Part shown: piece by piece, positions 14,752-53,857 of the stretch | How positions within the stretch are numbered: position 1 is the first letter of the stretch | Layout of the letters: each line of letters begins with the position of its first letter | Virus record (IMG/VR): IMGVR_UViG_3300044655_001510 | Origin: an uncultured virus (IMG/VR IMGVR_UViG_3300044655_001510) | Lineage: Duplodnaviria > Heunggongvirae > Uroviricota > Caudoviricetes | DNA: 64,000 bases | Direction: 5' to 3' (one strand) | The notes under the pieces: model-generated | What the model saw: only the letters and a program-made list of their open reading frames with translations | The model's database searches: none | What the model was told of the DNA's origin: nothing | Program-made: the position numbers and the translations under genes

Positions 14752-14835
14752 TATATTATTTTTGTGGAATTGGTGAGATGCGAGCACCGCTAGGCTCGAG
14801 CCATAAATACACCATACCAATATGAGAGTAACTAA

Positions 14836-15426
14836 ATGAGAATATCCGAGTTTGTAACAGAAAATACAGTTGAATTATCAAAAGAGCCAGGAACCATGAG
14901 TTTGTGGCATGGTGGAAACTTAACCAGCGACTTAGTCTTAATTCCACAAAAGACTGGTAGATTTGAATACGGTGCTGGTTTATACGCAACTACGCATTAC
15001 GATACTGCCAGAAAATACAGTAAAGGTTCACGTAAACTATATAAGATTACGTTAAGACAAGGCACAGATGCAAATAAATCATATGTTGAACTGGATAAGG
15101 CACTTGGGTTTGTTAACCAATTTGTAACTAAAGCAAAGCGTAAAGAAATTATGCAACAGCTTGAGAAGTACAATAAAAATAACATGATACCAGCGTATGT
15201 ATTCAACAACGTCATCTTAAACGAAAAAGCAATTAAGGCAACCGATACAGTTAATTTAAGTCGGTTCTTTGTTGATAACGGTATCGATTATCTACTCGTA
15301 CCAAATGCATTCGGATGGGGTGAAATGATGGTAGTTATTTTCAACTTACAGAAAATCTCAGACGTGCAACAGATCAAACCAACCGATACGATTGTTGACT
15401 ACGATTTACCAGTAAACTTTAATTAA
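14836..15426 (+). CDS. Putative ADP-ribosyltransferase-fold internal head protein
   Basis: MRISEFVTE N-terminus; LWHGG..GAGLYAT..ARKY motifs; TAAATA upstream. Confidence 0.55.
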   Translation: MRISEFVTENTVELSKEPGTMSLWHGGNLTSDLVLIPQKTGRFEYGAGLYATTHYDTARKYSKGSRKLYKITLRQGTDANKSYVELDKALGFVNQFVTKAKRKEIMQQLEKYNKNNMIPAYVFNNVILNEKAIKATDTVNLSRFFVDNGIDYLLVPNAFGWGEMMVVIFNLQKISDVQQIKPTDTIVDYDLPVNFN

Positions 15427-15455
15427 AAAAGGCACCCGTATCGGTGCCTTATCTT

Positions 15456-15638
15456 TTAGATTACCGAAGCGTAACGAAAAACTTCTTTAGCAGAAAGGTA
15501 TTTACCTTGCAATGGGTCGTAGTAAACAACCTTATCTTGTTTATCTCTGAATGGTCCTTCCATTCCGGTTACAGAACCATATCCATCAATTAGCGATGAT
15601 TTCTTAACATCACGATGTTTAGTATAATGTACGGTCAT
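15456..15638 (-). CDS. Hypothetical phage protein
   Basis: GMEGPF..YYDP..GKYL motif. Confidence 0.6.
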   Translation of the reverse strand: MTVHYTKHRDVKKSSLIDGYGSVTGMEGPFRDKQDKVVYYDPLQGKYLSAKEVFRYASVI

Positions 15639-16420
15639 AAGTCAAAATACCTCATTTGAAAATTACGGTGACTTGGTTCGTGAGGATACCCACGAGGGTT
15701 TGTAATAACGTGGCAGTCACCATGGACCACGTCTAATCCAGAATGCATATGTCCATAAATGAAATAATCAATCCCTTCCATGTATTCGGTCAAATCCGAC
15801 GAGAACAATCCGTTCATGTGGTATTGGTCTTTGTATATTGGATTGATAGTCGCATGTGAAGGTGAATGATGACTCACAACAACTGTCCGGTTCTTAGTAG
15901 TATTTAAGAACTTGTCCAATCCAATCAAGTATTGTTTGTGTAGTTTTAATGCAGTGCTAGGTAAGAACTTACCAGTGCCTTCTTTTATAACACGGAAGTC
16001 CATTAAAGTCTTTGGTGCTAGTAACATGGTTTGTGGATCTTCTCGATTGAAGTCAGTCCAGCACGTACCACCATAAAAATCAATACCTTCTAAGGTAATC
16101 GATTCACAATCTAAAACATGGATATTGGTATACTCAGCCAATGCGCGTTTTAAGTTACCAATACAATTATATTGGGATCCATACAATGAATGATTCCCAG
16201 CAATATAAATGACATGCTTGTACTTAAACGAAATAATCTCGAAAAAGTCAACAAAATCAGTACTAGTAGGATCTGGGTGATTCTGTTGGAATATTAGACT
16301 CGCAGTAGGAACAATATCACCAGCTAATACTAAAATGCTATTTGGAATCGGATGTATAATCCCGTAATCCAATTGGCGATGTTCTAAATGTAAATCTGAT
16401 GCGTAGTATATTCTAGTCAT
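15635..16420 (-). CDS. Calcineurin-like metallophosphoesterase
   Basis: SDLHLE, LAGDI, AGNH, HHSP, GHMH, NPRGY. Confidence 0.9.
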   Translation of the reverse strand: MTRIYYASDLHLEHRQLDYGIIHPIPNSILVLAGDIVPTASLIFQQNHPDPTSTDFVDFFEIISFKYKHVIYIAGNHSLYGSQYNCIGNLKRALAEYTNIHVLDCESITLEGIDFYGGTCWTDFNREDPQTMLLAPKTLMDFRVIKEGTGKFLPSTALKLHKQYLIGLDKFLNTTKNRTVVVSHHSPSHATINPIYKDQYHMNGLFSSDLTEYMEGIDYFIYGHMHSGLDVVHGDCHVITNPRGYPHEPSHRNFQMRYFDL

Positions 16421-16617
16421 TTTCGTACAAAGTAAGCAATTATGTGTGTGAATACAATAATAGATAATAGGTAACCAAACTCATACCAGTGTTTGGTAGG
16501 AATGTTGTAGTGCTGGATTTGATCAATAACCGTGGTTAACATCCATGCTAAACCGTAAGTGAGTGCGACGTAAATTAAGAATTTCATACCGGTATTTAGG
16601 TGGCACTCGCGATTGAT

Positions 16618-16833
16618 TCAACCATCTTTTAGATCTCGCACTGGGACTACTGGCCACATTCTACCACAATTATTTGCCGGGTCGCCTTGATACCAGCATG
16701 CACCAACTGATTCCTGATTAGCGTAGTATTCCGCTTGTGTTGGTAACCGCCAACCATCACCTAAACAAAAACAATACAAAACTGCCTCGTCATAACTTAT
16801 GCCAAATTCTGATGCTTTTCCGATTTCAATCAT
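16618..16833 (-). CDS. Minimal DUF1566/Lcl-C-like domain protein (array 1)
   Basis: MIEIG..YCFCLGDGWRLPT..PVRDLK. Confidence 0.85.
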   Translation of the reverse strand: MIEIGKASEFGISYDEAVLYCFCLGDGWRLPTQAEYYANQESVGACWYQGDPANNCGRMWPVVPVRDLKDG

Positions 16834-17062
16834 CTTTTAGATCTCGTACTGGGATTACTCGATATTTTTTAGTCTCACTGTCATCACGGACTTCACCATA
16901 CCAATATTTCCACGTATTCGTGTAACCAACGATAATGCGTATTTCGTCATACGTCGGTAATCTCCAACCAACATCACCTTCAATATTAAGTGAGAAACAA
17001 TAGAAGATTGCTTCCGCCCACGTCAACTCTGCTTCGTATTCTTTTGGTGCTAGTTCAATCAT
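16826..17062 (-). CDS. Minimal DUF1566/Lcl-C-like domain protein (array 1)
   Basis: Family motifs; 8-nt ATGATTGA overlap. Confidence 0.85.
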   Translation of the reverse strand: MIELAPKEYEAELTWAEAIFYCFSLNIEGDVGWRLPTYDEIRIIVGYTNTWKYWYGEVRDDSETKKYRVIPVRDLKDD

Positions 17063-17288
17063 CTTTTAGATCTCGTACTGGGATAATAGTTCCAAGATTA
17101 GTTAATCGATCACTTCGTTCACCTGGACCGTCAGCATACCAACCGTATATGTTTCTGTTATTGAAAAATTCTTTTTGCGTTGGTAATCTCCAACCAACCT
17201 TACCATCTATATTCAAAGAAAAACAATATAACTTGGCATCCGTATACGTTAATTTTTTGTGATATTCAACAGGTGCTACTTCAATCAT
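17055..17288 (-). CDS. Minimal DUF1566/Lcl-C-like domain protein (array 1)
   Basis: Family motifs; 8-nt overlap. Confidence 0.85.
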   Translation of the reverse strand: MIEVAPVEYHKKLTYTDAKLYCFSLNIDGKVGWRLPTQKEFFNNRNIYGWYADGPGERSDRLTNLGTIIPVRDLKDD

Positions 17289-17532
17289 CTGTTAGATCTC
17301 GTACTGGGATTAACCAATATTTAATTTTATGTGAAATGTTATCAACCGTGTCATTAGAATTCCACATCCCACGAATGCCATGAACTCTTACAACTCGAGT
17401 TTCTTCTAGGGTTGGAATTCGCCAATCCCGTTTACCATCAATGTCCAATAACATAAGATAAAGTCGAAGATTAGTCACCTCGGTTTCTATCCAGTACTCT
17501 TCAGGTGCTACTTCGAGTCTTGGTTCAATCAT
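17281..17532 (-). CDS. Minimal DUF1566/Lcl-C-like domain protein (array 1)
   Basis: Family motifs; 8-nt overlap. Confidence 0.85.
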   Translation of the reverse strand: MIEPRLEVAPEEYWIETEVTNLRLYLMLLDIDGKRDWRIPTLEETRVVRVHGIRGMWNSNDTVDNISHKIKYWLIPVRDLTDD

Positions 17533-17734
17533 CTTTTAGATCTCGTACTGGAGTTACATGCAACGTATGATGATGCATACTAGCACGTTCGTCATAGCAC
17601 CAGTCTGCATACATGGTATGCGTATGGTACTCGTTGATCGATGGTAATCTCCAGCCATCACCTAGACAAAAACAGTAGAATACTGCATCCTCATATGTCA
17701 TCTCACATTCTGATCTTTTACCTATTTCAATCAT
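17525..17734 (-). CDS. Minimal DUF1566/Lcl-C-like domain protein (array 1)
   Basis: Family motifs; 8-nt overlap. Confidence 0.85.
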   Translation of the reverse strand: MIEIGKRSECEMTYEDAVFYCFCLGDGWRLPSINEYHTHTMYADWCYDERASMHHHTLHVTPVRDLKDD

Positions 17735-17939
17735 CTTTTAGATCTCGTACTGGAGTTACCGGCCAAAGACTAACTCCATGACGCAGAAAGTCGTCTTTTA
17801 ACCAACCAATGTGTCCTGGTATGTAACGCGCGGATTCCCCTTCAGTTGGTAATCTCCAGTCATCACCTAGACAAAAACAGTAAAATACGGCATCGGCGTA
17901 GGTCATTCTTGAATTTGTAGTTTCACCTATCTCAATCAT
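17727..17939 (-). CDS. Minimal DUF1566/Lcl-C-like domain protein (array 1)
   Basis: Family motifs; 8-nt overlap. Confidence 0.85.
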   Translation of the reverse strand: MIEIGETTNSRMTYADAVFYCFCLGDDWRLPTEGESARYIPGHIGWLKDDFLRHGVSLWPVTPVRDLKDD

Positions 17940-18193
17940 CTTTTAGATCTCGTACTGGAATAATAACAAGTTCAGGTTCTCCCTGATCCTCAATATAACA
18001 AAGTTCATCTGAAAACCAATAATTACCCATCCAATGGTTTGGGTCACTTGCATCATACACGTAATAAATCCATTCGTCGCTGGTAGGCAATCTCCAACCA
18101 ATCTTATCATCAATCTTCAAAACAAACAAGTACAAATCGATATTGTGGATGGTCGATTTTTTTCCAATACTCTTCCGGTGCTATCTCAATCAT
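17932..18193 (-). pseudogene. Minimal DUF1566-like gene frameshifted at an A7 run
   Basis: MIEIAPEEYW start at 18193 is 1 nt out of frame with LYLFV..WRLPT..PVRDLKDD; A6 restores the frame. Confidence 0.7.
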
Positions 18194-18458
18194 CTTTTAT
18201 ATCTCGTACTGGGATTAACAAAAACTTGGATCCAACTCGAGTATACCATTCTTCATCCAACGAATCTGCGGTAGTCCAAGGTTCTCGACTGTGAGATATA
18301 TCATTTGTGGGAGGGATTTCATTAATCCAAACATGCAGATCATAATCACTTGGTAATCTCCAATCCTGTTTGCCATCAATCGTCAAAACAAACAAATACA
18401 GCTTGATTTCTTGCCACGTACATTCAACCCAGTATTCTTCAGGTGCTATCTCAATCAT
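18186..18458 (-). CDS. Minimal DUF1566/Lcl-C-like domain protein (array 1)
   Basis: Family motifs; near-duplicate of the next gene. Confidence 0.85.
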   Translation of the reverse strand: MIEIAPEEYWVECTWQEIKLYLFVLTIDGKQDWRLPSDYDLHVWINEIPPTNDISHSREPWTTADSLDEEWYTRVGSKFLLIPVRDIKDD

Positions 18459-18708
18459 CTTTTATATCTCGTACTGGGATTAACAAAAACTTGGATCCAA
18501 CTCGAGTATACCATTCTTCATCCAAAGTATCCGTAATTGTCCATCGTTCAGCCTTGATATTCGGTATGCTAACAAACCAATCCTCTTGTTCCTCTTCGGT
18601 TGGTAATCTCCAATCCTGCTTACCATCAATAGTCAATACAAACAAATACAGCTTGATTTCTTGAAACGTACATTCAATCCAGTATTCTTCAGGTGCTAGT
18701 TCAATCAT
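18451..18708 (-). CDS. Minimal DUF1566/Lcl-C-like domain protein (array 1)
   Basis: Family motifs. Confidence 0.85.
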   Translation of the reverse strand: MIELAPEEYWIECTFQEIKLYLFVLTIDGKQDWRLPTEEEQEDWFVSIPNIKAERWTITDTLDEEWYTRVGSKFLLIPVRDIKDD

Positions 18709-18919
18709 CTTTTAAATCTCGTACTGGCATGACTCTATAAACATCAGAACGATTCCGCCATGGATCATCTTGATACCAACCCAGTAAATTGTGGTTTTCG
18801 AATTCGTCAGCTGTTGACAATCTCCATCCATCACCTAAACAAAAGCAATACATAACCGCCTCGTCATAGGTCATTTTGAATGTTGATCGTTCACCGATTT
18901 CAATTTTTGGTTTAATCAT
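18701..18919 (-). CDS. Minimal DUF1566/Lcl-C-like domain protein (array 1)
   Basis: Family motifs. Confidence 0.85.
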   Translation of the reverse strand: MIKPKIEIGERSTFKMTYDEAVMYCFCLGDGWRLSTADEFENHNLLGWYQDDPWRNRSDVYRVMPVRDLKDD

Positions 18920-19127
18920 ATTTTAAGTCTCGTACTGGGATTACATGCCAACATAGATTACGGTTAGTTTGGTCATTAAAGTTCCAAACAAAGTCTACAT
19001 TGCCGTCGAATTCTTCAATGGTTGGTAATCTCCAGCCAATCTTACCATTAACGTTTAATGAAAAACAATACATAACCGCCTCGTCGTATGTCATTCTTGC
19101 ATCTGTTGTTTCACCTATCTCAATCAT
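18912..19127 (-). CDS. Minimal DUF1566/Lcl-C-like domain protein (array 1)
   Basis: Family motifs. Confidence 0.85.
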   Translation of the reverse strand: MIEIGETTDARMTYDEAVMYCFSLNVNGKIGWRLPTIEEFDGNVDFVWNFNDQTNRNLCWHVIPVRDLKYD

Positions 19128-19434
19128 CTTTTAGATCTCGTACTGGTCTAACTAAGTTATCGTCATAACCCTTATTCTCAGGCGATGACTTGTAATCCAT
19201 ACCTTGTCGATTAAAATCTACATCAATAGCATACCCAATGTCACCTTCTTCACATGACCAGTAATACCATCTAGCAAAATCGCATCCGGGCATAGCCCAG
19301 ATACTATTCAACTCCTTAACAGTTGGCAACCTCCAACCAGTTTTACCATCTATGTTGAGAGCAAAACAATACAAACGGGCATCATCCCAGCTTGATCGTA
19401 TTTCATACTCTTTTGGTGCTATCTCAATGTTCAT
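19120..19434 (-). CDS. DUF1566/Lcl-C-like domain protein (array 1)
   Basis: SWDDARLYCFALNIDGKTGWRLPTVKEL..YYWS..VRPVR. Confidence 0.85.
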   Translation of the reverse strand: MNIEIAPKEYEIRSSWDDARLYCFALNIDGKTGWRLPTVKELNSIWAMPGCDFARWYYWSCEEGDIGYAIDVDFNRQGMDYKSSPENKGYDDNLVRPVRDLKDD

Positions 19435-19703
19435 GGTTTGTCTCTCACTGGAATTAACTTGTAGTTTGAAAATCCATGTTTAGTATGTTCGTTAAAATAT
19501 AGAACAGCTTCACTGTACCAAACAAGTTCACCGGATTGCCAACATATGCCTTTTAATTGGGTGAGTTCATAGTTAGTGGGCACCCGCCAGTCTGTTTTAC
19601 CATCAATATTCAACGAGAACAGGTAAAGACGGATTTCCTCATGCGACATACAATTCCAGTATTTTTCTGGTGCGAGTTCAAATTTTATGTCTAGTCTTGC
19701 CAT
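19431..19703 (-). CDS. Minimal DUF1566/Lcl-C-like domain protein (array 1)
   Basis: Start MARLDIKFELAP coupled by TAATG. Confidence 0.8.
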   Translation of the reverse strand: MARLDIKFELAPEKYWNCMSHEEIRLYLFSLNIDGKTDWRVPTNYELTQLKGICWQSGELVWYSEAVLYFNEHTKHGFSNYKLIPVRDKP

Positions 19704-19975
19704 TATAAGTCTCTTACTGGTATGGTTATAAACAGCGGATCTTTCCACTCATTTAATTTGTCTGGTGTAACGCAATCTAAGTCTTCCAGCAGCCAGTAAT
19801 CAGAAAAGAATTGCTTGTATTCTGATGTAAAGTCGTATATCTCGTGAAGCCATTCATCTCTCGTGGGAAATCTCCAGCCTGCCTTGTTATCGATTAACAG
19901 TGAAAACAAATATAACCTAGCATCATTAAATTCGAGTTTTTTCCAGTATTCTTCAGGTGCTATTTCAATTGCCAT
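19703..19975 (-). CDS. Minimal DUF1566/Lcl-C-like domain protein (first of array 1)
   Basis: Start MAIEIAPEEYW after AGGA RBS and sigma70 promoter. Confidence 0.85.
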   Translation of the reverse strand: MAIEIAPEEYWKKLEFNDARLYLFSLLIDNKAGWRFPTRDEWLHEIYDFTSEYKQFFSDYWLLEDLDCVTPDKLNEWKDPLFITIPVRDL

Positions 19976-20003
19976 GCTTGTTCCTATATTGAATTTTTGA
20001 CGT

Positions 20004-20032
20004 ATTGTACTTAGAGATTGGTTGGATGTCAA
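20004..20032 (-). promoter_or_regulatory. Sigma70-type promoter driving array 1
   Basis: TTGACA-17-TACAAT. Confidence 0.75.
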
Positions 20033-20127
20033 GTGGATTTGTTGGTTTATGATTGAATTCAACTTAGAGGTGCGAGGAGCTATTGTAATATCGCGAGCAC
20101 CGCTAGGTTGGATTTTATTTTAGTGAT

Positions 20128-20150
20128 GCGAGTGCCGATAGGCACGAGCC
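20128..20150 (+). repeat. GCGAG-NNN-cGNTAg-N'N'N'-CGAGC hairpin element (representative of ~18 copies)
   Basis: GCGAG TGC CGATAG GCA CGAGCC; other copies listed in findings. Confidence 0.85.
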
Positions 20151-20304
20151 TTAAGGCATTATCTTTTAGACAAAAAGAAACCCGAGCTAAGTCGGGTTCC
20201 TTGGGTTTCATTATCTTTTAGATTCGAAAAGATAAATACTCATAGTAAAAGATATCGGGAAATATCTTGAACTACTAATCAACGTCTATAGAGGAGACAT
20301 CAAT

Positions 20305-21495
20305 ATGACAGTATTTAGCCCAGAAAAAACACAAGAGTTTATCACGTTAGCAACTGAAAAACATGGTAATAAGTATACCTATGAAAAAGTTCAAGTTAGA
20401 GACGGGACGGGTTATAAAAAAGATAAACTGACAATCTATTGTCTGAAGCATGGTTATTTCGATCAATCATGGAATTCGCATCTTTCATCTAGTGGATGTA
20501 TTAAATGTGCACACGATAGGGTAAATGAAGCAAACACCAAAACACAGGAACAAGTTATTGCGGAATTCCAAGAAGTTCATGGGACCCGTTACAAATATCA
20601 TTTAGTGGACTATAAAAAAGGACATATACCAGTATTGATTGAATGTACAAAGCACGGTGTGTTTTCTCAAACACCATCAAATCACCTGCAAGGTGGATGT
20701 GAAACATGTTCATATGAGTTGAGATCAGAGAATCTTCGACAGGATAGAGACAGTTTAATTGCTGATTTTAATCGAATCCATAACTCGGTATATGATTATT
20801 CACTAATGGAAGATTACAAAAATGGAAATGATAAAATAACAGTCATATGTAAAAAGCATGAACCATTTAAGATTTCAATTTTAAAACATAAGGCGGGTCA
20901 GGGATGTAAAGAATGCGGGAAATTGGCAGCAGCTGATATTCGTAGATTAGACCAGAGTGTTATGTTGGAAAGATATAGAGAAGCACACGGCGATCGTTAT
21001 GGATACGACTATTTTGAGTATAAAACAGCACATACTAAGATAAAGGTAGAGTGTTTTGATCATGGTATATTTGAAATTACGGCGAGAGATCATGTTAAAA
21101 GTGGCTGTCCAAAATGTAGATTAGCTGAACAATCATCACATATTTCACATAGATGGTTGGATAGTTTGGGAATACCATTAGAAAAAGAATATAGATTCCC
21201 GCAATATAAAGGTAGACCAGTGGATGGATTTCACGTCGAATCTAACACAATCTATCAATTTCATGGTGATTATTTTCATGGAAATCCAGTAGTATATGAT
21301 GCTAACGAATATAATGCATTGGTGAAAAAGACGTTTGGTGCGATATATGAAAATAGTTGCCGCGTTGATCAAGATTTTAGAGATCTTGGTTGTAATTTAG
21401 TTATTATGTGGGAGCATGATTGGAAAATTCATGAACGAGAACAACGTGAATTACGAAAACAGCAAGTATTGGAAGAACGGAAAAATAAGCAGTAG
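20305..21495 (+). CDS. Homing-endonuclease-like protein: four Zn-binding (DUF723-like) repeats plus C-terminal Vsr/PD-(D/E)xK-type nuclease
   Basis: Repeats C.KHG.F..H..GC..C; C-terminal VDG..YQFHGDYFHG..MWEHDW. Confidence 0.8.
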   Translation: MTVFSPEKTQEFITLATEKHGNKYTYEKVQVRDGTGYKKDKLTIYCLKHGYFDQSWNSHLSSSGCIKCAHDRVNEANTKTQEQVIAEFQEVHGTRYKYHLVDYKKGHIPVLIECTKHGVFSQTPSNHLQGGCETCSYELRSENLRQDRDSLIADFNRIHNSVYDYSLMEDYKNGNDKITVICKKHEPFKISILKHKAGQGCKECGKLAAADIRRLDQSVMLERYREAHGDRYGYDYFEYKTAHTKIKVECFDHGIFEITARDHVKSGCPKCRLAEQSSHISHRWLDSLGIPLEKEYRFPQYKGRPVDGFHVESNTIYQFHGDYFHGNPVVYDANEYNALVKKTFGAIYENSCRVDQDFRDLGCNLVIMWEHDWKIHEREQRELRKQQVLEERKNKQ

Positions 21496-21503
21496 GATAA
21501 AAG

Positions 21504-21528
21504 AAAGGCCACCGCAAGGTGGCCTTTT
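21504..21528. terminator. Bidirectional intrinsic terminator
   Basis: AAAGGCCACC-GCAA-GGTGGCCTTTT between convergent genes. Confidence 0.8.
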
Positions 21529-21531
21529 GCA

Positions 21532-22125
21532 TTAAATAGATTTCAATTGTCGTTTAGTTACAATCTCATCGGCTAGCCCGTATGCAATTGCTTCTTCGGC
21601 TGAAAGGAAGAAATCACGTGACATATCGTGTTCTAGTTTTTCGAAAGTTTGCCCAGTGTTTTTGACATATATATTTGTTAGTAATGTATTCAATCTCAAC
21701 GTCTCAGCCATTGCAATTTTCATATCAACCGCAGTTCCTTGGTTTCCACTTGACACGCAGTGTAATAAATGTCTAGCATTTGGTAGCATAAAACGCTTAC
21801 CTTTAGTTGCTGAACTAGCTATGATAGATCCCATCGATGCTGATTGGCCCATTGTGTAACTAAAAATATCGTTAGAAATCATGGACATACAATCTACGAT
21901 CGCAAGACCACTTAACACGGATCCTCCGGGGCTATTGATATACATGTGAATGTCTTTTGTTGGATCTTGTGCTTCAAGAAATAACAATTGCGCTGTTACA
22001 GAAGCAGCCATTTGATCGTTGATATCGGTCGAAATCACAATTATGCGATCTCTGAGTAATTGTGAAAAAATATCAAAAACTCTTTCACTGTTGCTCGTTT
22101 TCTCTACTACCATTGGTACCATCAT
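21532..22125 (-). CDS. clpP: ATP-dependent Clp protease proteolytic subunit
   Basis: DIFSQLLRDRII, YINSPGG, SASMG (Ser), H, RDFFLSAEEAIAYGLAD. Confidence 0.95.
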   Translation of the reverse strand: MMVPMVVEKTSNSERVFDIFSQLLRDRIIVISTDINDQMAASVTAQLLFLEAQDPTKDIHMYINSPGGSVLSGLAIVDCMSMISNDIFSYTMGQSASMGSIIASSATKGKRFMLPNARHLLHCVSSGNQGTAVDMKIAMAETLRLNTLLTNIYVKNTGQTFEKLEHDMSRDFFLSAEEAIAYGLADEIVTKRQLKSI

Positions 22126-22331
22126 GCTGTAACTCCTAAGTTTTAAATTGTAAGAAAGGTTAGTATAACCCTGATAAGAAAGTAAGTCAATCGTTAATTC
22201 ATATTAGTTTTACATTGGCTCGCACCTAGCGGTGCTCGCAACATTAATATTGTCAAGATGCTCGGCGGCTATCGCGCCTCGCAAACAATATAATACAACA
22301 ATACCACAATACCACAAAACCCAAAACAAAA

Positions 22332-22607
22332 CTATTCTAAATCACGAACAGGGTGCACACCTAATTGATAATCATTCACACCGAACCTAGTACTGAATGG
22401 TGACAAATACTTGATGTGGTTGTTGGCGGTAACTTCAGACGACCAGTAATTTCCGGGTTCGATCAATCCTCGACCTAGCATCACATGTAGTTCAGCGATC
22501 GTAGGTAATCTCCAACCGGTCTTACCCCCAATATTAAGAGCAAAACAGAACAATCGGGCTTCGTCCCAAGTTGCCTTAATCCAAACTGGTGCTATTTCGA
22601 ATTTCAT
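22332..22607 (-). CDS. DUF1566/Lcl-C-like domain protein
   Basis: Family motifs, NYWSS. Confidence 0.85.
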   Translation of the reverse strand: MKFEIAPVWIKATWDEARLFCFALNIGGKTGWRLPTIAELHVMLGRGLIEPGNYWSSEVTANNHIKYLSPFSTRFGVNDYQLGVHPVRDLE

Positions 22608-22948
22608 GATAAATCCCTTACTGCTCTGACTGTGAATCGATTGAACTTCGGGTGTTGTCCTGACAATTGATTCATGAAATTAAATCCAAACGCAGTGACT
22701 GTGGAATCCCATGTAGTGGCAGTAGATGACCAATAGTATAGATAGTCAAAATCATTGGCAGTAGATGACCAATAGTGTAGATATTCAAAATCATACTCAT
22801 TGGGAGCGTCGTAAATATTCTGTAATTCAAAAATTGACGGTAATCTCCAACCCGTTTTACCATCGATATTAAGAGAGAAACAGAACAATCGTGCATCATC
22901 CCAGTTGGCTTGGATCTCAGTTGATTTAGGTGCTATTTCGAATTTCAT
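22604..22948 (-). CDS. DUF1566/Lcl-C-like domain protein with internal 13-aa duplication
   Basis: APKSTE..WRLPS..(YWSSTA)x2..VRAVR. Confidence 0.85.
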   Translation of the reverse strand: MKFEIAPKSTEIQANWDDARLFCFSLNIDGKTGWRLPSIFELQNIYDAPNEYDFEYLHYWSSTANDFDYLYYWSSTATTWDSTVTAFGFNFMNQLSGQHPKFNRFTVRAVRDLS

Positions 22949-22978
22949 AGTGTTAACTGCTTTTGTTAAGATTCTAGT

Positions 22979-23006
22979 AGTATAAACGGATTTTCTGAAA
23001 TGTCAA
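22979..23006 (-). promoter_or_regulatory. Sigma70-type promoter
   Basis: TTGACA-16-TATACT upstream of 22948. Confidence 0.7.
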
Positions 23007-23070
23007 GTGGTTAATTGCTCGCCACTAGCGTGGCTCGCGATAATATCAATCAACCTAGGTTAATTATCTT

Positions 23071-23862
23071 TTAGTATGGGAATTCAGTTTTATTTGCGTA
23101 GGTTGGGCGGTAAGCAATAACAAAACCACCTACTTGGATTAGCTGTTCTGCTGCTACAATAGGTTGCATATTGTTTCTGTCATAGAAGTAAGCGTGACGT
23201 TCTGGATCCATACCAACTTGTTTCCAAGCTGGATTTTTCATTGCTTTTTCTGCATAGGCTTTTGCTTGCTCGGAACTCATTGGTACCCAATTACCTTTCA
23301 TCACAGCGATTGTACCTTTTTCATTTCCTTTGGCGATCTTCATTGCTGCGTTTGGATGTACACCTAGGGTTGCATTAGTTATGATTGCGGTTGAAGTATA
23401 GGCTATTGGTGTTCCAGCATCCCAACCTTTCTTTTGTTCGTGAACAGCAACCACCCAAGTATCTTTATCACGGTAAGATGGGATATCTAATCTTAATCCA
23501 ACTGGGTATCCTTTTGGTAGCAATTCCATCGGATCTTTTACTTTTTCAGTTTTGTCTTTTGTTATTACATCTTTGATTTTTTCAATAGCTGCATACATAG
23601 GAACTTCTTCATATGGGTAAACGGCTTTGACTTTGTTGACAAGTTGATCGTATTCTTGTTTAGACATTTCACCTGCTTCAACCTTTTTAATTGCGGCTTG
23701 TAGGTCTTTAGACCGTTTGGTTACATCCTTATAATGCATTGCTTGTCTGGATGTACCTTTCTCTGGTGCTGGTTGAAATTCTGGTTCGGTATTGAACGAG
23801 AGTATGTCAGCAGTTTTGGTATCGGTTTTTTTTATTGCTTCAACGATTTCGTGAATTCGCAT
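23071..23862 (-). CDS. Putative internal head protein (MRIHEIVE N-terminus)
   Basis: 263 aa; TAAATA upstream; VGLRLDIP and QVGMDPERHAYFYD motifs. Confidence 0.7.
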   Translation of the reverse strand: MRIHEIVEAIKKTDTKTADILSFNTEPEFQPAPEKGTSRQAMHYKDVTKRSKDLQAAIKKVEAGEMSKQEYDQLVNKVKAVYPYEEVPMYAAIEKIKDVITKDKTEKVKDPMELLPKGYPVGLRLDIPSYRDKDTWVVAVHEQKKGWDAGTPIAYTSTAIITNATLGVHPNAAMKIAKGNEKGTIAVMKGNWVPMSSEQAKAYAEKAMKNPAWKQVGMDPERHAYFYDRNNMQPIVAAEQLIQVGGFVIAYRPTYANKTEFPY

Positions 23863-23992
23863 TGGGTAACTCCTTTGGCGTATTGGTATATTTAGTGGTT
23901 GGTATTGTAGTTTTGTTTGGTCGGGTTGTCAAGTGGTTATTGTTGTGGATTTTGTTTGGTAGCGAGCACCGCTAGGTGCGAGCCATATAACA

Positions 23993-24018
23993 GAAAACCC
24001 ACTTTAGGGTGGGTTTTC
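23993..24018. terminator. Hairpin downstream of the VR-like gene (terminator and/or DGR-type target hairpin)
   Basis: GAAAACCCAC-6nt-GTGGGTTTTC, 22 nt after stop at 24041. Confidence 0.6.
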
Positions 24019-24040
24019 AATATTACGTTACAAAAAAAGC

Positions 24041-24581: not shown

Positions 24582-24735
24582 TTTACTTCTCCTTTTATAA
24601 TATATACTTGTATTTACCGAGTTTTTGACAATCCACTATCAATATAACTGTAAAATATGAGCATCCAGCATACACTTAAGCTCGTCACTTCGTTCCTCGC
24701 AACAACTCAATATATAATAAGGAGTAAACTAACGG

Positions 24736-24763
24736 TTGACATTCTGATTTTATACAGTATACT
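24736..24763 (+). promoter_or_regulatory. Sigma70-type promoter
   Basis: TTGACA-16-TATACT upstream of 24794. Confidence 0.7.
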
Positions 24764-24793
24764 ACCGGTAATTTAATCAAGCAGGAACATAAT

Positions 24794-25631: not shown

Positions 25632-25720
25632 ACCATTTTGATACCTCGTGAGCAATAAAACACTTGACAACCTAGACTAACTACAGTAAACTTGCTGCAA
25701 CATTAACAGAGGAGTGCAAT

Positions 25721-28370: not shown

Positions 28371-28479
28371 ACCACACGATTGCGAGCACCGCTAGGTGCG
28401 AGCCAATAACAAAAACACTTGACAACCTAGACTAACTACTATATACTCCACCCAACATTAACCACAACGGAAAATTAAA

Positions 28480-30074: not shown

Positions 30075-30178
30075 CTACATTGGCTCGCACCTAGCGGTGC
30101 TCGCGACTTGTATCTTAACTTAGATATTGCGAGCACCGCTAGGTGCGAGCATTAAATACCTATTTAAAGGAAACAAAA

Positions 30179-43806: not shown

Positions 43807-43885
43807 AAGATAATAGAAAAGCCAGTAGACTTATAATCCACTGGCTTTTTAGTAATAGGCTCGCACCTACCGGCGCTCGCAATAA

Positions 43886-45295: not shown

Positions 45296-45378
45296 GTTGG
45301 AACTCCTATAGTAAAATGAATAAGTTCTAAAGTAGTCAGAATCGGCAAAATTCGTGGACTACACCCTTATTTATCCTT
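45296..45378 (-). promoter_or_regulatory. Late promoter plus structured leader with RBS-sequestering hairpin
   Basis: GATAAATA, GTAGTC..GACTAC stem, GAACT..AGTTC stem over AGGAG; conserved at 51476-51553. Confidence 0.7.
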
Positions 45379-45561
45379 CCATTAAGAAAACCCCTTGACA
45401 CTCACCCTAAAAGATAATAGAATCTACCTAAACAAAGGCTCGGCCCTGTTAACGCGGTAATTGCATAAGGCTCGGCCCTATCAGGCCTCGCAACCAATCA
45501 TGAAACAAACTCATTAATGATTCTCTTGACACCAATTATCTTTAAGTTATAATCTCAAACA

Positions 45562-49538: not shown

Positions 49539-49711
49539 GCACAAACCCTCCATAGTTTTAGTACCTATAGGTATTTATTGGGTGGTTGTTAAATACTCTT
49601 AGTAATGATGCGAGGCACGTTAGTGCCGAGCCATTGTGAGTATATGAATATGCGAGAGCCGATAGGCTCTAGCCATTGTGATTGATTATCTTTTAGGACA
49701 TAAATACAGAC

Positions 49712-50059: not shown

Positions 50060-51475
50060 CTAAAATGGATTGCGGTATGGTTTACTTAGTTTTTTGCACA
50101 TTTCGTGAGACATACCACCAAACCAACCTTCACCAGCCACTTCAGATTTTGATATTTTCATTGATTCACCAGTAGTTGGATTATGAACCCAAGTGGCTTG
50201 ATTTGCAGAAATCTCGTGCGGTAATTTCACATAACCAGAAGGTTTTTGATACGTTCCAACCGAGTGGATTGATCTGATGTATGAAACTCCACTTGAATTC
50301 CTCGTGTAAAGCTGTTTATTCAAGTTGTATTCTTCCGTTGTGACACGGCGTGCCTCACCTGTTAATTTGAGTTTCACCGGTATCATACCAGCGGCCGTTG
50401 ATTTGTATAAATGTTTGTTTTTCTGAAATTCGATACTAGTAATATAAACATTTTCTCCGGTACTTAGATCGATTGCGGTGACCATACCGGCCGTGTGTAT
50501 TTGGTACAAATCCTTATTTGCCTCATATTCCGAACTTGTCAATCTTACCGATTCGCCGGTTAATTTGTTCTTAGCTGTTAATAAACCAGTTGTCGCCGTT
50601 TCGTACAAATCTCTATTTGCACGATAGGTTTCTACTGGTATCGATACCAGTTTACCGGTTGCAATTTCTTTAGCACTGGTCATACCAGTGTATATACTTT
50701 CGAACTTATCTTTGTTGTTCTCGTAATCATCTACTGATACCCTAATTACATTTCCGGTGGATAATTCTCTCACCGTGGTCATACCAGAAGAAGCCGTTGT
50801 GTACTTTTCCTTATTAGTTTGATATTCTTCCGAAGGTATCCGTTTTTTCTCACCGGTGAACGTATCAACTACTTGTACGAGTCCTGTATTCATCGCAGCA
50901 TACTTGTCCTTATTCGCGTGGTAAATTTCACATGACAAACTCATTATTTCACCAGTTTCAATATCGCGAACTGTTACCATACCAGTCGTAGCAGTTTCGT
51001 ATAAATCAGGATTTGCGGTGTATTCTTCAACTGGAACCATTCCGAATATTCCGGTTTCTTTGTTTTTAACCATAGTTAAACCGCGTTGAGAGTTGATGAC
51101 TAGGTTACGAGCATCTTCGTAATAGGTTTTCAAGTTTTTGAACCTATCAACGACTGCTTGACCTTTACTTCCATTCTGTGTGCACATGAGGTAAAATGCT
51201 TGTGACATAGCACCGTTAAACGTATATGCGTTTGAAAGGATCAAATGGGCTGTGAAGTGTTGGCCTAGTGTTAATCGTATCCCATTCCAAGGGTGATCTT
51301 TTAGATTTTTGTATTCAGGAAAGAATACTCGAGGGCAGATATGATGAAGCTCGGTGTATGTGTCTTCTGGAAGATTCTCGTTTAATACTGCACATTTTGC
51401 GATGTATTTTACGTAGATTCTTAATTGACGTTCGTTGTGTTCTTTTGTTGCTAAAATTTTGGCATAAATAGTCAT
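50060..51475 (-). CDS. HNH-type endonuclease with eight 33-aa tandem repeats (paralogue of 43886..45295)
   Basis: ELHHICPRVFFPEY..LTLGQHFTAHLIL; same repeat array. Confidence 0.75.
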   Translation of the reverse strand: MTIYAKILATKEHNERQLRIYVKYIAKCAVLNENLPEDTYTELHHICPRVFFPEYKNLKDHPWNGIRLTLGQHFTAHLILSNAYTFNGAMSQAFYLMCTQNGSKGQAVVDRFKNLKTYYEDARNLVINSQRGLTMVKNKETGIFGMVPVEEYTANPDLYETATTGMVTVRDIETGEIMSLSCEIYHANKDKYAAMNTGLVQVVDTFTGEKKRIPSEEYQTNKEKYTTASSGMTTVRELSTGNVIRVSVDDYENNKDKFESIYTGMTSAKEIATGKLVSIPVETYRANRDLYETATTGLLTAKNKLTGESVRLTSSEYEANKDLYQIHTAGMVTAIDLSTGENVYITSIEFQKNKHLYKSTAAGMIPVKLKLTGEARRVTTEEYNLNKQLYTRNSSGVSYIRSIHSVGTYQKPSGYVKLPHEISANQATWVHNPTTGESMKISKSEVAGEGWFGGMSHEMCKKLSKPYRNPF

Positions 51476-51553
51476 AGTTGGAACTCTCCTCTGAAATGTA
51501 AGTTCTAAAGTAGTCAGGATCGCCAAATCCGTGGACTACACTTATTTATCCTT
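51476..51553 (-). promoter_or_regulatory. Late promoter plus structured leader (second copy)
   Basis: Aligns with 45296-45378 with compensatory GAAT/ATTC to GGAT/ATCC change. Confidence 0.7.
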
Positions 51554-51698
51554 ATAACAGAAAAAGAGAGATTAGCTCGGCACTAACGTGCCTCGCAATC
51601 ATAACCATAATATTAACACACACTCGGTTATTAGGCTCGCACCTAGCGGTGCTCGCATAGCCAACTAGTATTAATCATGAAACGCGTGAGATTATACC

Positions 51699-52228: not shown

Positions 52229-52270
52229 ATAGTAGCATATACTATCCACTTTTAACAGAGAGGTGTCACA

Positions 52271-52624
52271 ATGAAAGCAGCAGTAATTGGTTCACGCACA
52301 ATTGTTAGTTACCCAACCATCGAACGCATTCTAAAAGATTATAATCAATTGGATGCGATCAGTACATCACACGCATCTGGAGTTGATGGCAATGCCGTGA
52401 TGTATGCTTATCGAAATCTTAGACAACCACCGCAGGTCTTTGCGGAAAATGATTCACCAGAAAGAAATCATGCTATTATTGATTCAGCTGACATGTTGAT
52501 TGCCATATGGGATTCTGAATCGGTTGGTACTCGAGAATCGATTGAATATGCCAAATCAAAAAAGAAACCAGTCCACGTTTGGTCTGTTACTGAAACCACA
52601 GTTACCCTAGAAGCAATCCAATGA
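52271..52624 (+). CDS. SLOG/DprA-like small protein
   Basis: AVIGSR, A.GVD, RN..I...D.LIAIWD..S.GT. Confidence 0.75.
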   Translation: MKAAVIGSRTIVSYPTIERILKDYNQLDAISTSHASGVDGNAVMYAYRNLRQPPQVFAENDSPERNHAIIDSADMLIAIWDSESVGTRESIEYAKSKKKPVHVWSVTETTVTLEAIQ

Positions 52625-53151
52625 ACGTTAAAAGTTTAATATCAGTTACTAAACCGTATACATCTTCTATTGACTTTGAAATTAAGAATCCAGCGACTAT
52701 TAGTTGGGCTTCCATTGGAGAAGTTGATACTGTTACTGCTCGTGAATTTGCAATTGAGTTGTTACGTCAAGTAGACGCCCTAGATTATTCAAGGCTCGAG
52801 ATTGCACCATACGAATACTGGAGCGAAGAACTGTTGTTTGAGGAAGCCAAGTTATATTGCTTTTCATTGAACATCGATGGTAAGATTGGTTGGCGGTTTC
52901 CAACACTACAAGAATGTGATATGATTCGTAAGCAAGCCGATTCTAATTTATTTCGTCGGTTATCAGAAAAAAACTGGGTATATACTTCGACTGAACCGTT
53001 TGAAGATATCGATGGATATAATACTATACGTTCAAGACCGTATGAATATTCTAATGATGGACCAGTGACAACCTATGGTTTCAGTGATGATGAATACGAC
53101 TTTGAGCAATTGGATGATTTACGTGCAACCGTTCCAGTTAGAACTCGCTAA
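52621..53151 (+). CDS. DUF1566-like domain fused to an unrelated ~57-aa N-terminal domain
   Basis: Family scaffold starts at LEIAPYEYW. Confidence 0.8.
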   Translation: MNVKSLISVTKPYTSSIDFEIKNPATISWASIGEVDTVTAREFAIELLRQVDALDYSRLEIAPYEYWSEELLFEEAKLYCFSLNIDGKIGWRFPTLQECDMIRKQADSNLFRRLSEKNWVYTSTEPFEDIDGYNTIRSRPYEYSNDGPVTTYGFSDDEYDFEQLDDLRATVPVRTR

Positions 53152-53184
53152 AAGATAATTAGAGTATTGTTGTGTGTAGCGAGC

Positions 53185-53436
53185 CTAAATCCAGGGATGA
53201 TGTGGCAATAAATCCCCTAAATTATCAACCAAAGTGTTACCACTATACTTAGTTGGTAATAGATTGATGTCGGCTGTATGCAATGCTCTGTAATAAGGTT
53301 TGGTTGGGTCAATAGAACCAGTGATAGTACCATCAGCGGCTACGACTTTACCTTGGCGTTTTGCTTCAGCCAAAGCTATCTTACCTTCGAGTCTTAATTG
53401 TCTAGTTGCTAATGTTGAAATACCGTTTAGTGACAT
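53185..53436 (-). CDS. Hypothetical late protein
   Basis: MSLNGISTLATRQLR; TAAATA and AGGA upstream. Confidence 0.7.
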   Translation of the reverse strand: MSLNGISTLATRQLRLEGKIALAEAKRQGKVVAADGTITGSIDPTKPYYRALHTADINLLPTKYSGNTLVDNLGDLLPHHPWI

Positions 53437-53465
53437 TGTCTTTTCCTTTTATTAATATTTATCCG

Positions 53466-53798
53466 ATGAACATAGAACTTGCACCTTTAGAATACATCAA
53501 AGCACTCACGTGGGATGAAGCCCGTTTGTATTGTTTTTCGTTGAACATCGATGGGAAGGTTGGTTGGAGATTACCAACTATGCGAGAATTGCATTGGCTT
53601 GGGTCAAGAGGGTTAATCACTTCGGAACATACCCAAACAATGAATTATCGGAAGTATCCTAGATACTGGTCCAGCGAGGAGCATTCTGATTACTCAGGAT
53701 GTGCGTGGCTTGCGATGCCACTTCTGGTTGATATGCATACAACTTGGGATGACAAATACGTGAATACTACCCTAGTTAGACCAGTGCGAGATTGCTAA
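53466..53798 (+). CDS. DUF1566/Lcl-C-like domain protein
   Basis: Start MNIELAP; RYWSSEE..AW..VRPVR. Confidence 0.85.
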   Translation: MNIELAPLEYIKALTWDEARLYCFSLNIDGKVGWRLPTMRELHWLGSRGLITSEHTQTMNYRKYPRYWSSEEHSDYSGCAWLAMPLLVDMHTTWDDKYVNTTLVRPVRDC

Positions 53799-53857
53799 AA
53801 GATAATTGCTTTATATGGCTCGCTCCTAGCGGAGCTCGCAGGAATTATCTTTTAGTC

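Follow-up and report, generated by a model that had tools for sequence, protein, structure and literature searches.

Short hairpins are scattered between the genes of the window, a 64,000-nucleotide stretch of DNA from an uncultured virus (IMG/VR record IMGVR_UViG_3300044655_001510), and they raise the question of what such a repeat is and what it does in this genome. The source is a jumbo phage from lake water that belongs to the Rak2/GAP32 group within the T4 superfamily. It carries a T4-like gene set (major head protein, sheath, and gp32-like, UvsX-like, gp55-like late sigma and gp46/47-like proteins), and its capsid protein shares 65-68% identity with the counterparts in Vibrio phage 2.275.O, Phosso, CBB and GAP32. 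The main comparison genome is a 327-kb relative, 92% complete, which holds 58 copies of the hairpin.

The hairpin unit and its copies

The dispersed G.A hairpin is confirmed as real. Searching the window for GCGAG-N3-CGNTAG-N3-CGAGC with at most two mismatches gives 15 matches, against 0.01 expected from 100 shuffles. The sequence-only reading had listed about 18 intergenic copies, and all 18 are present (15 by pattern, and 20093, 22260 and 24680 besides); their positions hold, except that several minus-strand coordinates were off by one (now 22218, 30083, 43859, 45470, 51635 and 53818). Fifteen window copies and 53 of the relative, 68 in all, went into a covariance model; at E < 0.01 it finds 17 matches in the window, all within 14.7-53.9 kb. 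The copies are as follows.

14780..14801, plus strand: hairpin, stem CAC/GCT with two pairs broken, 34.8 bits, orthologue intact in the relative; 28 nt from the -35 of an opposite-strand 12/12 promoter, with the ATG of 14836-15426(+) 34 nt downstream
20093..20114, plus strand: truncated hairpin, 5' arm and loop only, 3' arm replaced just after TAGG
20128..20149, plus strand: hairpin, stem TGC/GCA, loop GATA, upstream of HNH gene 20305-21495(+)
22218..22239, minus strand: hairpin, sense, between two minus-strand genes, 52 bits; promoter 27 nt downstream
22260..22282, minus strand: variant hairpin with an extra base in the 3' stem, in tandem with 22218, 22.6 bits, E 9e-5
23017..23038, minus strand: hairpin, stem CCA/TGG, sense; 11/12 promoter 10 nt downstream
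23962..23983, plus strand: hairpin marking the left end of a 737-bp cassette that the relative lacks; antisense to its neighbours, bidirectional terminator 9 nt further on
24680..24700, minus strand: variant hairpin, cGAAg triloop, stem GAA/TGA, second tandem G.A, 19.3 bits; coincides exactly with the right edge of the 737-bp insertion, copy also in the relative
28382..28403, plus strand: hairpin, sense, 11 nt after the stop of an Lcl_C gene and 15 nt before the 11/12 promoter of the DNA ligase gene
30083..30104, minus strand: hairpin, antisense half of an inverted pair; its partner 30129 is 24 nt away
30129..30150, plus strand: hairpin, sense half of the inverted pair, overlapping the called GTG start of 30143-30394
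43859..43880, minus strand: hairpin with a G.T wobble (CGC/GTG), 5 nt past the stop of HNH gene 43886-45295(-); bidirectional terminator 10 nt later
45470..45491, minus strand: hairpin whose closing pair is T.G, upstream of the HNH gene
49610..49631, plus strand: hairpin, stem GCA/TGC, in tandem with 49652
49652..49673, plus strand: hairpin, stem AGC/GCT; 3' arm CTAGC, one mismatch in the G.A motif
51575..51596, minus strand: hairpin upstream of HNH gene 50060-51526(-)
51635..51656, minus strand: hairpin at a homology break with the relative, where stem and loop differ
53818..53839, minus strand: hairpin, stem CTC/GAG, inside the inverted repeat CTAAAAGATAATT...AATTATCTTTTAG

The unit spans about 26 nt, TT-GCGAG-stem-cGNTAg-stem-CGAGC-C. 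In 37 dereplicated, unrelated flank contexts the units are identical, conservation is bounded at -2 and +2, farther flanks carry no information, and the same stem types recur at unrelated loci. Covariation of the stem, proposed earlier, is borne out: 98.7% of 455 cells in the 68-copy alignment are standard pairs (six are unpaired), double changes occur at 6/7 stem pairs, 0/500 shuffles reach the observed covariation score, and slid controls pair in only 19-40%. All seven stem types named earlier are present, and wobbles do fall on the GCGAG strand (seven G.U/U.G cells, about four independent events). A wider exact-pattern set comprises 158 instances (13 in the window and 145 IMG/VR loci, some of whose contigs may be overlapping assemblies). 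The three variable positions are all paired in 128 of these, with 17 stem types, while the 30 without pairing are probably chance matches in unrelated contigs. The loop has the general form G-N-T-A and reads GCT or GTT in 108/158 exact copies. Across variants the basal GCGAG/CGAGC tandem G.A part is invariant, whereas apical stems and loops differ (GNTA, GTCA, GTAA, AAC, AAA, GAA). The GAA triloop is found in two variants, including, as had been claimed, the 24680 copy, whose stability is not predicted by standard energy rules; GAA triloops are typical of stable DNA mini-hairpins. Comparison with Rfam returned no family match.

In ten orthologous unswapped pairs shared with the relative, hairpin cores differ at 4/220 positions (1.8%) and the 40-nt flanks on either side at 126/800 (15.8%). 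Judged from these alignments, conservation above the flanks points to selection or homogenisation. Antisense copies are as intact as sense ones.

Strand asymmetry as RNA and as DNA

The hairpin favours one strand, as had been proposed. Folded as RNA, the G.A strand is more stable than its complement in 68/68 copies; folded as DNA, in 67/68. Nearest-neighbour energies are -11.5 kcal/mol for the G.A strand and -8.5 kcal/mol for the other as RNA, and -5.35 and -4.57 kcal/mol as DNA, a gap of about 0.8. Since the preference for the G.A strand is larger in RNA than in DNA, the description of these features as ssDNA-specific finds no support; 5'-CGAG-3' tandem sheared G.A pairs are a classic stable motif of RNA as well. 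Stability z-scores of the RNA hairpin are -3.2 and -4.7.

Placement relative to genes, promoters and terminators

Copies are intergenic, and the regions that house them abound in C-type-lectin-like paralogs and homing endonuclease genes. Hairpins cluster clearly beside C-type-lectin-like (Pfam Lcl_C) genes in the relative (21/41 hairpin junctions vs 76/416 others, Fisher P = 7e-6); the window shows the same direction (8/12 junctions vs 37/107), but with P = 0.055. Clustering beside endonuclease genes holds both in the window (4/12 junctions vs 2/107, P = 8e-4) and in the relative (4/41 vs 12/416, P = 0.046). Between co-directional genes, raw counts favour the sense orientation (45 sense vs 17 antisense, P = 5e-4), contrary to the earlier statement that orientation is independent of transcription; that statement does stand once copies with common flanks are merged, which reduces 88 copies to 37 clusters (16 sense vs 11 antisense, P = 0.44).

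Ten copies follow the order of the promoter-early stem-loops (PeSLs) of T4-type phages, namely gene, hairpin and then a sigma-70-type promoter 10-58 nt downstream, and another ten have a strong opposite-strand promoter 8-34 nt away. In 37 kb scanned, 6/14 strong promoters (at least 11/12) have a full copy 10-35 nt upstream; a promoter adjoins fewer than half of the copies. Hairpins stand 14-15 nt ahead of SD-ATG in Lcl_C arrays, others 4-14 nt past stop codons, and some at convergent gene ends or directly ahead of terminators. Little transcription is expected of several antisense copies, which have a canonical terminator on one side and the next promoter on the other. No U tract follows the hairpins (mean of about 2.6 T per nine bases after the hairpin), for which reason they are not simply RNA terminators. 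Their 3' flank is A-rich and terminator calling accepted 0/17 copies; canonical terminators are called beside several copies.

Copies at cassette junctions

Individual copies mark the edges of exchanged segments, as the sequence-only reading anticipated. Copies bound the 737-bp cassette on both sides, and the 35-nt segment with the 53818 copy stands where the relative has 13 unrelated nt. At the 51635 break, the 3' flank is conserved and the 5' flank unrelated, and at the 20128 site the relative has another stem and loop (5/22 bases differ) beside a 3' flank that is 39/40 identical. The 43859 copy lies within a cassette that another gene replaces in the relative, and the 45470 site has one copy in the window vs three in the relative. 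Truncated copies are broken just past the loop, and a truncation like that of the 20093 copy is also found in the relative. Among lake-water contigs, the cassette at 22609-23071, with the 23017 copy, is absent as a whole from those of two runs, and loose ends fall at 20148 and 22242. Copies occur as singles, tandems and inverted pairs. At the one clean insertion, that of the 35-nt segment, no target-site duplication was seen. Breakpoint mapping gave no general association: synteny breaks are not enriched at hairpins relative to other intergenic DNA (6/40 within 25 nt, P = 0.71).

The enzymes whose co-occurrence had been proposed as a check are missing from the 92%-complete relative, where no Y1 HUH of the RAYT kind (Y1_Tnp), no reverse transcriptase (RVT_1) and no tyrosine or serine recombinase (Phage_integrase, Resolvase) was detected. 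Pfam and PHROGs scans of 424/458 called proteins returned no candidate enzyme. The suggested folded-ssDNA recombination signal is partly supported: its one-strand fold, mixed orientation and some junctions hold, its ssDNA specificity finds no support, and the enzymes of the named systems are missing from the relative.

Distribution and comparison with known systems

A scan of four cultured relatives gave 0 matches, whereas the positive control yielded 58. In 185,579 prokaryote species genomes, one of the two commonest variants had 0 matches and the other 2, both stray and in Halobacteriales MAGs; the hairpin is therefore not a host REP. On these searches, the family appears restricted to one phage lineage.

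By analogy, its distribution resembles that of bacterial REP repeats and of T4-type stem-loop cassettes. Like REP/BIME elements (REPINs), the hairpins are short imperfect palindromes between genes, in tens of copies and both orientations, occurring as singles, tandems and inverted pairs, with strand-defining asymmetry, stems covarying between subfamilies and conservation above the flanks. Unlike REP/RAYT, the hairpins lack a GTAG head and are accompanied by neither a RAYT nor a Y1 HUH gene in the 92%-complete relative, and the setting is a virulent-type phage genome rather than a chromosome, with the repeat not found in prokaryote reference genomes. The intercistronic C(UUCG)G hairpins of phage T4, reportedly described by Tuerk et al. 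in 1988, are likewise very stable tetraloop hairpins between T4-type-phage cistrons, but these are loop-defined and sense-directed, whereas here the basal G.A platform is conserved and orientation mixed. Hairpins of attC and diversity-generating (DGR) systems are also single-strand folds 3' of exchangeable or variable genes, those of DGRs having the C-type-lectin fold; here, however, integrase and reverse transcriptase are absent from the 92%-complete relative, and the unit is far shorter than attC and has no box structure.

PeSLs, in the parts of the published accounts that describe them, are cassettes made up of an early promoter together with a stem-loop that bring about indels between closely related T4-type phages, with crossovers mapped in or next to the loop, one in the loop itself (Arbiol et al. 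2010, PMC2839356; Comeau et al. 2014, PMC4122927). As so described, they share with the G.A hairpin a repeated intergenic stem-loop in hyperplastic regions of T4-superfamily phages, a position beside sigma-70-type early promoters and flanking small accessory genes, and occurrence at the junctions of indels or replacements that set close relatives apart; the truncated copies broken just past the loop recall the PeSL crossovers. In the same accounts, a PeSL is a composite of about 100 bp defined mainly by its promoter, with varied G-tract/C-tract stem-loops, whereas here the hairpin alone is conserved (about 26 nt), with invariant tandem G.A and GNTA loop, in either orientation and with a promoter beside fewer than half of the copies. 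Terminator activity and mini-circles have been demonstrated for PeSLs.

Candidate roles of the hairpin

The tentatively preferred explanation is a lineage-specific, REP/PeSL-like boundary hairpin, strand-specific and under selection, that may be bound by a putative protein at cistron and cassette borders. The invariant G.A platform, the loop G..TA and the C at +1 would form the docking site for a phage or host protein. Where transcribed in sense, a copy would yield a stable RNA stem-loop (about -12 kcal/mol) that could punctuate the message as a 3'-exonuclease barrier or read-through attenuator rather than an intrinsic terminator. Identical arms and hairpin formation in ssDNA could make copies crossover or template-switch points, at which mostly Lcl_C paralog and homing-endonuclease cassettes would be duplicated, swapped or inserted; the selected role may lie at the RNA or the DNA level. 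This explanation draws on the fold, the G.A-strand preference, core conservation, the T4-like phage, PeSL-like promoter layouts and junctions at copies. Against it stand the near-random dereplicated orientation (16:11), intact antisense copies, some where little transcription is expected, the promoter beside fewer than half of the copies, the lack of a U tract, the unenriched breakpoints (6/40, P = 0.71) and the failure to find a binding protein. A lesser but real possibility is that the hairpin represents a REP/MITE-like ssDNA element, small and either mobile or copy-driven, whose 26-nt unit a putative nuclease or transposase other than Y1 HUH copies or inserts; covariation would then reflect the enzyme's needs on the folded G.A strand, and RNA effects would be by-products. 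Near-random orientation with intact antisense copies, identical units in 37 unrelated contexts, stem types recurring across loci, the sharp-edged presence or absence of the 35-nt segment, stems swapped at orthologous sites, tandem and inverted pairs, restriction to one lineage (0 in four cultured relatives vs 58) and GAA triloops in two variants all fit this proposal. It has to contend with the absence of HUH, recombinase and reverse transcriptase from the 92%-complete relative, the lack of an enzyme candidate among 424/458 proteins, a clean insertion without target-site duplication, TnpB elements with end hairpins unlike the G.A hairpin, and DNA energies that part the strands by only about 0.8 kcal/mol.

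Compared with the preferred boundary hairpin, other roles fare less well. It is unlikely that the hairpin is an RNA operator, in which a phage RNA-binding protein or endoribonuclease would read the G.A platform and GNUA loop in mRNAs and so control stability, processing or translation of an early or accessory-gene regulon. The raw sense bias (45:17), positions in Lcl_C arrays (14-15 nt ahead of SD-ATG) and past stop codons (4-14 nt), the stable RNA fold (z -3.2 and -4.7), strictly conserved loop and flank bases, and the encoded RNA ligase, 3'-5' exoribonuclease-like protein and RNA-repair HAD domain agree with such a role, but dereplication removes the bias (16:11), conservation is equal in antisense and probably untranscribed copies, and neither an Rfam match nor an RNA-binding protein was found. 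A DNA-hairpin start signal, whether primase/primosome entry site or N4-type hairpin promoter, is very improbable. GCT and GTT, found in the GNTA loop of 108/158 copies, are T4 primase recognition triplets, and the phage encodes a DnaG-type primase and a DnaB-like helicase; a promoter would nevertheless be senseless at convergent gene ends or directly before terminators, no T7/N4-like RNA polymerase was detected in a search whose control was uninformative, and the phage genome has no strand switch. Ordinary intrinsic terminators have almost no probability: GC-rich stem-loops after genes would suit them, but the U tract is absent, the 3' flank A-rich, 0/17 copies were called terminator-like while canonical terminators were called beside several of them, and the antisense share among dereplicated copies is large (16:11). 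Only slightly better placed, and largely refuted, is a known recombination system (REP/RAYT, integron attC/IntI or a DGR target hairpin): Y1_Tnp, RVT_1, Phage_integrase and Resolvase are all absent from the 92%-complete relative, as are the GTAG head and attC box layout from the hairpin. What speaks for such a system is the REP-like distribution, the presence in the phage of Mtd_N-domain tail fibre genes, and hairpins found 4-14 nt past the stop codons of C-type-lectin-fold genes, like DGR target hairpins.

Copies, covariation and conservation of the hairpin

The pattern GCGAG-N3-CGNTAG-N3-CGAGC, with at most two mismatches, has 15 matches in the window against 0.01 expected. Together with three variant copies, these matches recover all of the approximately 18 copies listed in an earlier, sequence-only reading. 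Copies are named by window start and strand, and the variants are as follows:

20093 (+), copy truncated past the loop
22260 (-), copy with one stem base more
24680 (-), copy whose loop is a cGAAg triloop and whose stem has a second tandem G·A

A covariance model trained on 68 copies gives 17 window matches at E<0.01, ranging over 14.7-53.9 kb. In the 68-copy alignment, standard pairs occupy 98.7% of 455 cells and compensatory double changes occur at six of the seven pairs; the observed covariation score was reached by none of 500 shuffles, and pairing was only 19-40% once the 3' partner was slid as a control. Compensation is also seen at the pair closing the loop (C-G to T-A and T·G) and at the one above the G·A step (G-C to A-T). 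Across the window and IMG/VR loci, the three free positions are all paired in 128 of 158 exact-pattern instances, with 17 stem types. The fold and its stem covariation are thereby borne out. Wobble pairs on the strand carrying the GCGAG/CGAGC tandem G·A pairs (the G·A strand) account for seven cells, representing approximately four independent events.

Across 37 dereplicated contexts, only TT-[22 nt]-C-(A/T) carries information; flanks further out are unrelated, and no consistent pairing extends the stem into them. The cores of 10 orthologous pairs shared by the window and its relative G002, a 327,256-bp IMG/VR contig of a related jumbo phage, differ at 4 of 220 positions, compared with 126 of 800 in the ±40-nt flanks. 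Two further orthologous sites have exchanged the entire stem and loop, with 5 and 7 of 22 bases differing, and retain well-conserved 3' flanks; 5' flanks are more diverged than 3' flanks (317 versus 357 of 400 positions identical). In three further relatives (28 matches), the apical part is variable, comprising 3-bp stems with a GTTA loop, bare C-GTCA-G or C-GTAA-G, AAC or AAA triloops, or a longer stem with GCGAAGC. Basal GCGAG/CGAGC(C) is retained in every variant, indicating that the tandem G·A step is the constant feature. No copy matched Rfam at gathering scores (whole window) or at E<=5 (19900-24900).

Phage lineage and distribution

The window encodes Mtd_N tail fibres, an RNA ligase, a DNA ligase, ClpP, one TnpB and three HNH homing endonucleases, and is collinear, in inverted orientation, with G002 (92% complete) at approximately 80-96% identity. 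G002 carries T4-type core genes for a major head protein, sheath, gp32-like, UvsX-like and gp46/47-like proteins, a clamp loader and a gp55-like late sigma factor, and its capsid protein shares 65-68% identity with the counterparts in Vibrio phage 2.275.O, Sinorhizobium phage Phosso, CBB and GAP32; this combination places the phage in the Rak2/GAP32-like jumbo group. Public runs with window sequence bear the labels of lake-water or other aquatic metagenomes, two being labelled just 'metagenome'. Part of the window occurs in 24 public runs, one of them a metatranscriptome with 6% of the sampled words; available as contigs and aligned to 14700-34699, it carries no information on strand, ends or level.

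The model recovers 58 copies from G002 but no copy from the four cultured relatives named above, and the two commonest variants have zero and two matches in 185,579 prokaryote species genomes, both being single copies in Halobacteriales MAGs. These counts indicate that the hairpin family belongs to one phage lineage, and a host REP origin is rejected on the same prokaryote counts. A near-identical search against GenBank phages gave no match. No description of the hairpin was found in the literature searched; term-matched passages of the CBB genome paper describe RpoD-like, TGAAACG-type and ATAAATA promoters and contain no such hairpin.

Genomic placement and orientation

All copies are intergenic with respect to called genes or overlap weak small ORFs only, in agreement with the placement originally proposed. 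Within the window they are concentrated between 14.7 and 53.9 kb, and those in G002 fall into five regions of small ORFs; large structural and replication blocks are without copies. Proximity to C-type-lectin-like (Lcl_C) units and to endonuclease genes was also confirmed: Lcl_C neighbours occur at 21 of 41 hairpin junctions of G002 versus 76 of 416 others (P=7e-6), and endonuclease-gene neighbours at 4 of 12 hairpin junctions of the window versus 2 of 107 others (P=8e-4). The Lcl_C genes beside hairpins belong to a very large paralog family with products of approximately 97 aa. Small Lcl_C/DUF1566 genes of about 70-115 aa are hugely expanded throughout G002 and in parts of the window (among them 16618-19434 and 24794-28370), comprising 33 of 120 called window genes and 72 of 458 in G002 by iterated profile search.

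Ten copies stand after a gene and 10-58 nt ahead of a sigma-70-type promoter that precedes the next gene, and ten others have a strong opposite-strand promoter 8-34 nt from the hairpin 5' end. Some copies lie 14-15 nt ahead of an SD-ATG within paralog arrays. Canonical bidirectional terminators are found within 15 nt of seven copies, six of which have the hairpin 3' end toward the terminator. A full copy lies upstream of 6 of 14 strong promoters, which is similar to a rough chance estimate within intergenic gaps.

Between co-directional genes, 45 copies are sense and 17 antisense, an excess inflated by the duplication of gene-plus-hairpin units. Clustering by flank similarity reduces 88 copies to 37 clusters, of which 16 are sense and 11 antisense (P=0.44), so the proposed independence of orientation from transcription holds for dereplicated copies and fails for raw counts. 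A layout resembling terminal inverted repeats at Lcl_C genes, with the 5' end gene-facing in 13 of 17 clusters, was rejected, as it vanishes when all neighbours are counted (31 versus 29).

Junctions and possible cassette exchange

Exact junctions between the window and G002 occur at hairpins 20128, 24680, 51635 and 53818. A 737-bp cassette (23943-24679), which carries a terminator and a DUF1566-like gene, is missing in G002 and in one lake-water contig. This insert begins 20 nt ahead of hairpin 23962(+), and its other end exactly abuts hairpin 24680(-), a copy also present in G002. Its DUF1566-like protein is approximately 190 aa and encoded on the minus strand; the frame is broken near the gene start by a C10 run at 24531-24540 (G on the coding strand), which may reflect a slip in sequencing or a slippery tract. 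At 53818, a 35-nt hairpin segment stands in place of 13 unrelated nt of G002, and at 51635 the homology breaks at the hairpin. Truncated copies at 20093-20149 are broken just past the loop in both phages and differ in copy number, and contigs of two runs lack a cassette that contains hairpin 23017, a promoter and gene 22604-22948. However, hairpins lie within 25 nt of only 6 of the 40 synteny breakpoints between the window and G002, which does not exceed the intergenic expectation (P=0.71); indel-breakpoint mapping shows no excess at hairpins over intergenic DNA. A recombination role is illustrated by these individual cases, not demonstrated by them.

A joint 20149->22213 appearing in all four runs was discarded, since one of its sides comprises only 23 letters; most likely it reflects a cross-match with a different locus that has an inverted hairpin pair, like 106849/106876 of G002. 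An HNH homing-endonuclease gene at 43886-45295(-), within 43849-45360, occupies a slot that holds an unrelated gene in G002. Its closest G002 copy is the HNH gene at 124137-125444 (approximately 70% DNA identity), to which window gene 50060-51526 is orthologous.

Relation to known systems and possible function

Modular gene shuffling in T4-type phages is attributed to repeated stem-loops, the known examples of which, PeSLs, are loose composites. The hairpin described here is compact, sharply delimited and strongly covarying, and its invariant tandem G·A platform is unusual; it occurs in tens of copies in each genome and is restricted to a single uncultured freshwater lineage. It therefore offers a clean handle on whether a dedicated reader protein exists, on whether the element acts as RNA or DNA, and on how giant-phage accessory-gene arrays are built.

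The closest known elements are the PeSL cassettes of T4-type phages, as described in PMC2839356 and PMC4122927, and bacterial REP elements. As with PeSLs, copies are intergenic in hyperplastic regions of a T4-type phage. A PeSL combines its stem-loop with an AT-rich upstream region and a sigma-70-like early promoter; here, promoters scoring at least 10/12 lie within approximately 60 nt, in either orientation, of about 7 of 17 window and 21 of 53 G002 copies (manual count). The PeSL stem-loop acts as a terminator or attenuator; no U tract follows the present hairpin in any copy. PeSLs also mark indel or replacement junctions between close relatives, and here the four exact junctions stand beside a breakpoint frequency at intergenic expectation.

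The hairpin resembles REP elements in forming many short, imperfect intergenic palindromes, in both orientations and in pairs, but it has no GTAG head at its foot, being flanked by 5' TT and 3' C(A/T). Six-frame searches of G002 found no Y1 HUH gene of the RAYT type (PF01797; control matched 6 of 14 genomes), no tyrosine recombinase such as the IntI of integron attC systems (PF00589; control matched 14 of 14), and no reverse transcriptase as in DGRs (PF00078) or serine recombinase, with controls working for both. The REP-, attC- and DGR-like identities first suggested are not supported, their enzymes being missing from this 92%-complete genome. Nor are the elements simply RNA terminators, as none of the 17 is flagged terminator-like and no U run lies directly 3' of the stem. 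IS200/IS605 end hairpins were rejected because the ends of the resident TnpB elements read CCCGRYGA-TCTTTAG-TCRYCGGG. Membership in REP/RAYT, attC, DGR, intrinsic terminators and IS605 ends thus fails, and some PeSL features are shared. The TnpB (IS605 OrfB) gene of the window, at 58820-60109(-), has its end hairpins at 58823-58845 and 60198-60220, and the stretch 58797-60499 is without counterpart in the syntenic block of G002. G002 itself carries four or more additional TnpB copies and lacks TnpA.

Calculated energies favour the G·A strand in all 68 copies as RNA (mean -11.5 versus -8.5 kcal/mol) and in 67 of 68 as DNA (-5.35 versus -4.57 kcal/mol). Folding of one strand was correctly anticipated, but the asymmetry, though real, is not DNA-specific and with these parameters is larger as RNA; the proposed ssDNA specificity is not supported. 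The preferred reading, held tentatively and at somewhat less than even confidence, is that the hairpin is a selected boundary element whose G·A platform would be read by a putative protein, that sense copies would form a stable RNA stem-loop, and that the repeated arms may serve as crossover points. The main rival, a DNA-level copy or mobile mechanism, would account for the sharply bounded 35-nt segment and exchanged stems, has the enzyme searches against it, and is rather unlikely.

A specific proposal, considered improbable, is that jumbo phages have an undescribed system for exchanging or copying cassettes and that the hairpin serves as its recognition signal. Here, a non-HUH, non-integrase protein would read the tandem-G·A ssDNA hairpin and use it to move, duplicate or swap cassettes, chiefly C-type-lectin-like paralogs and homing-endonuclease genes; if true, this would be a phage-borne counterpart of REP/RAYT or of integrons. 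A pure RNA operator, which would suit the stable RNA hairpin, ranks after the main rival and is unlikely: antisense copies score equal to sense copies, and some are located downstream of a terminator and ahead of the following promoter, a position in which transcription should be low. Family scans with PHROGs (124) and Pfam (300), covering 424 of the 458 called G002 proteins, gave no candidate binding or mobilising protein; 26 small proteins and eight large ones crossing locus borders fell outside these scans. A T7-like RNA polymerase search of G002 gave no match, but its control likewise matched nowhere. Any cognate enzyme, should one exist, would represent a novel type of DNA or RNA machinery guided by hairpins. 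Further products encoded by G002 are ribosomal protein S21, Cpn10, small WYL and WYL_2 proteins, a queuine-tRNA-ribosyltransferase-like protein, an Rv2179c-like 3'-5' exoribonuclease and two ART-PolyVal ADP-ribosyltransferases.

Other repeats and RNA features

A second dispersed repeat, CTAAAAGAT(A/G)ATT, has 45 window matches with at most one mismatch against 0.33 expected, for example at 11647-12007, 42432-42558, 23062-23074 and 53795-53807/53843-53855, the last being an inverted pair that brackets hairpin 53818. Its arrays have a period of 28-29 nt. Within paralog arrays it forms the overlapping stop/start junction (...CTAAAAGATGATTGA), and elsewhere it occurs at gene ends beside terminators; a role as a further cassette linker or as a promoter element is possible. 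The Rfam Polynucleobacter-1 RNA is matched over its full model at 12344-12494(-), with 66.6 bits (gathering score 37), in a stretch where genes are sparse and the CTAAAAGATAATT repeat is abundant.
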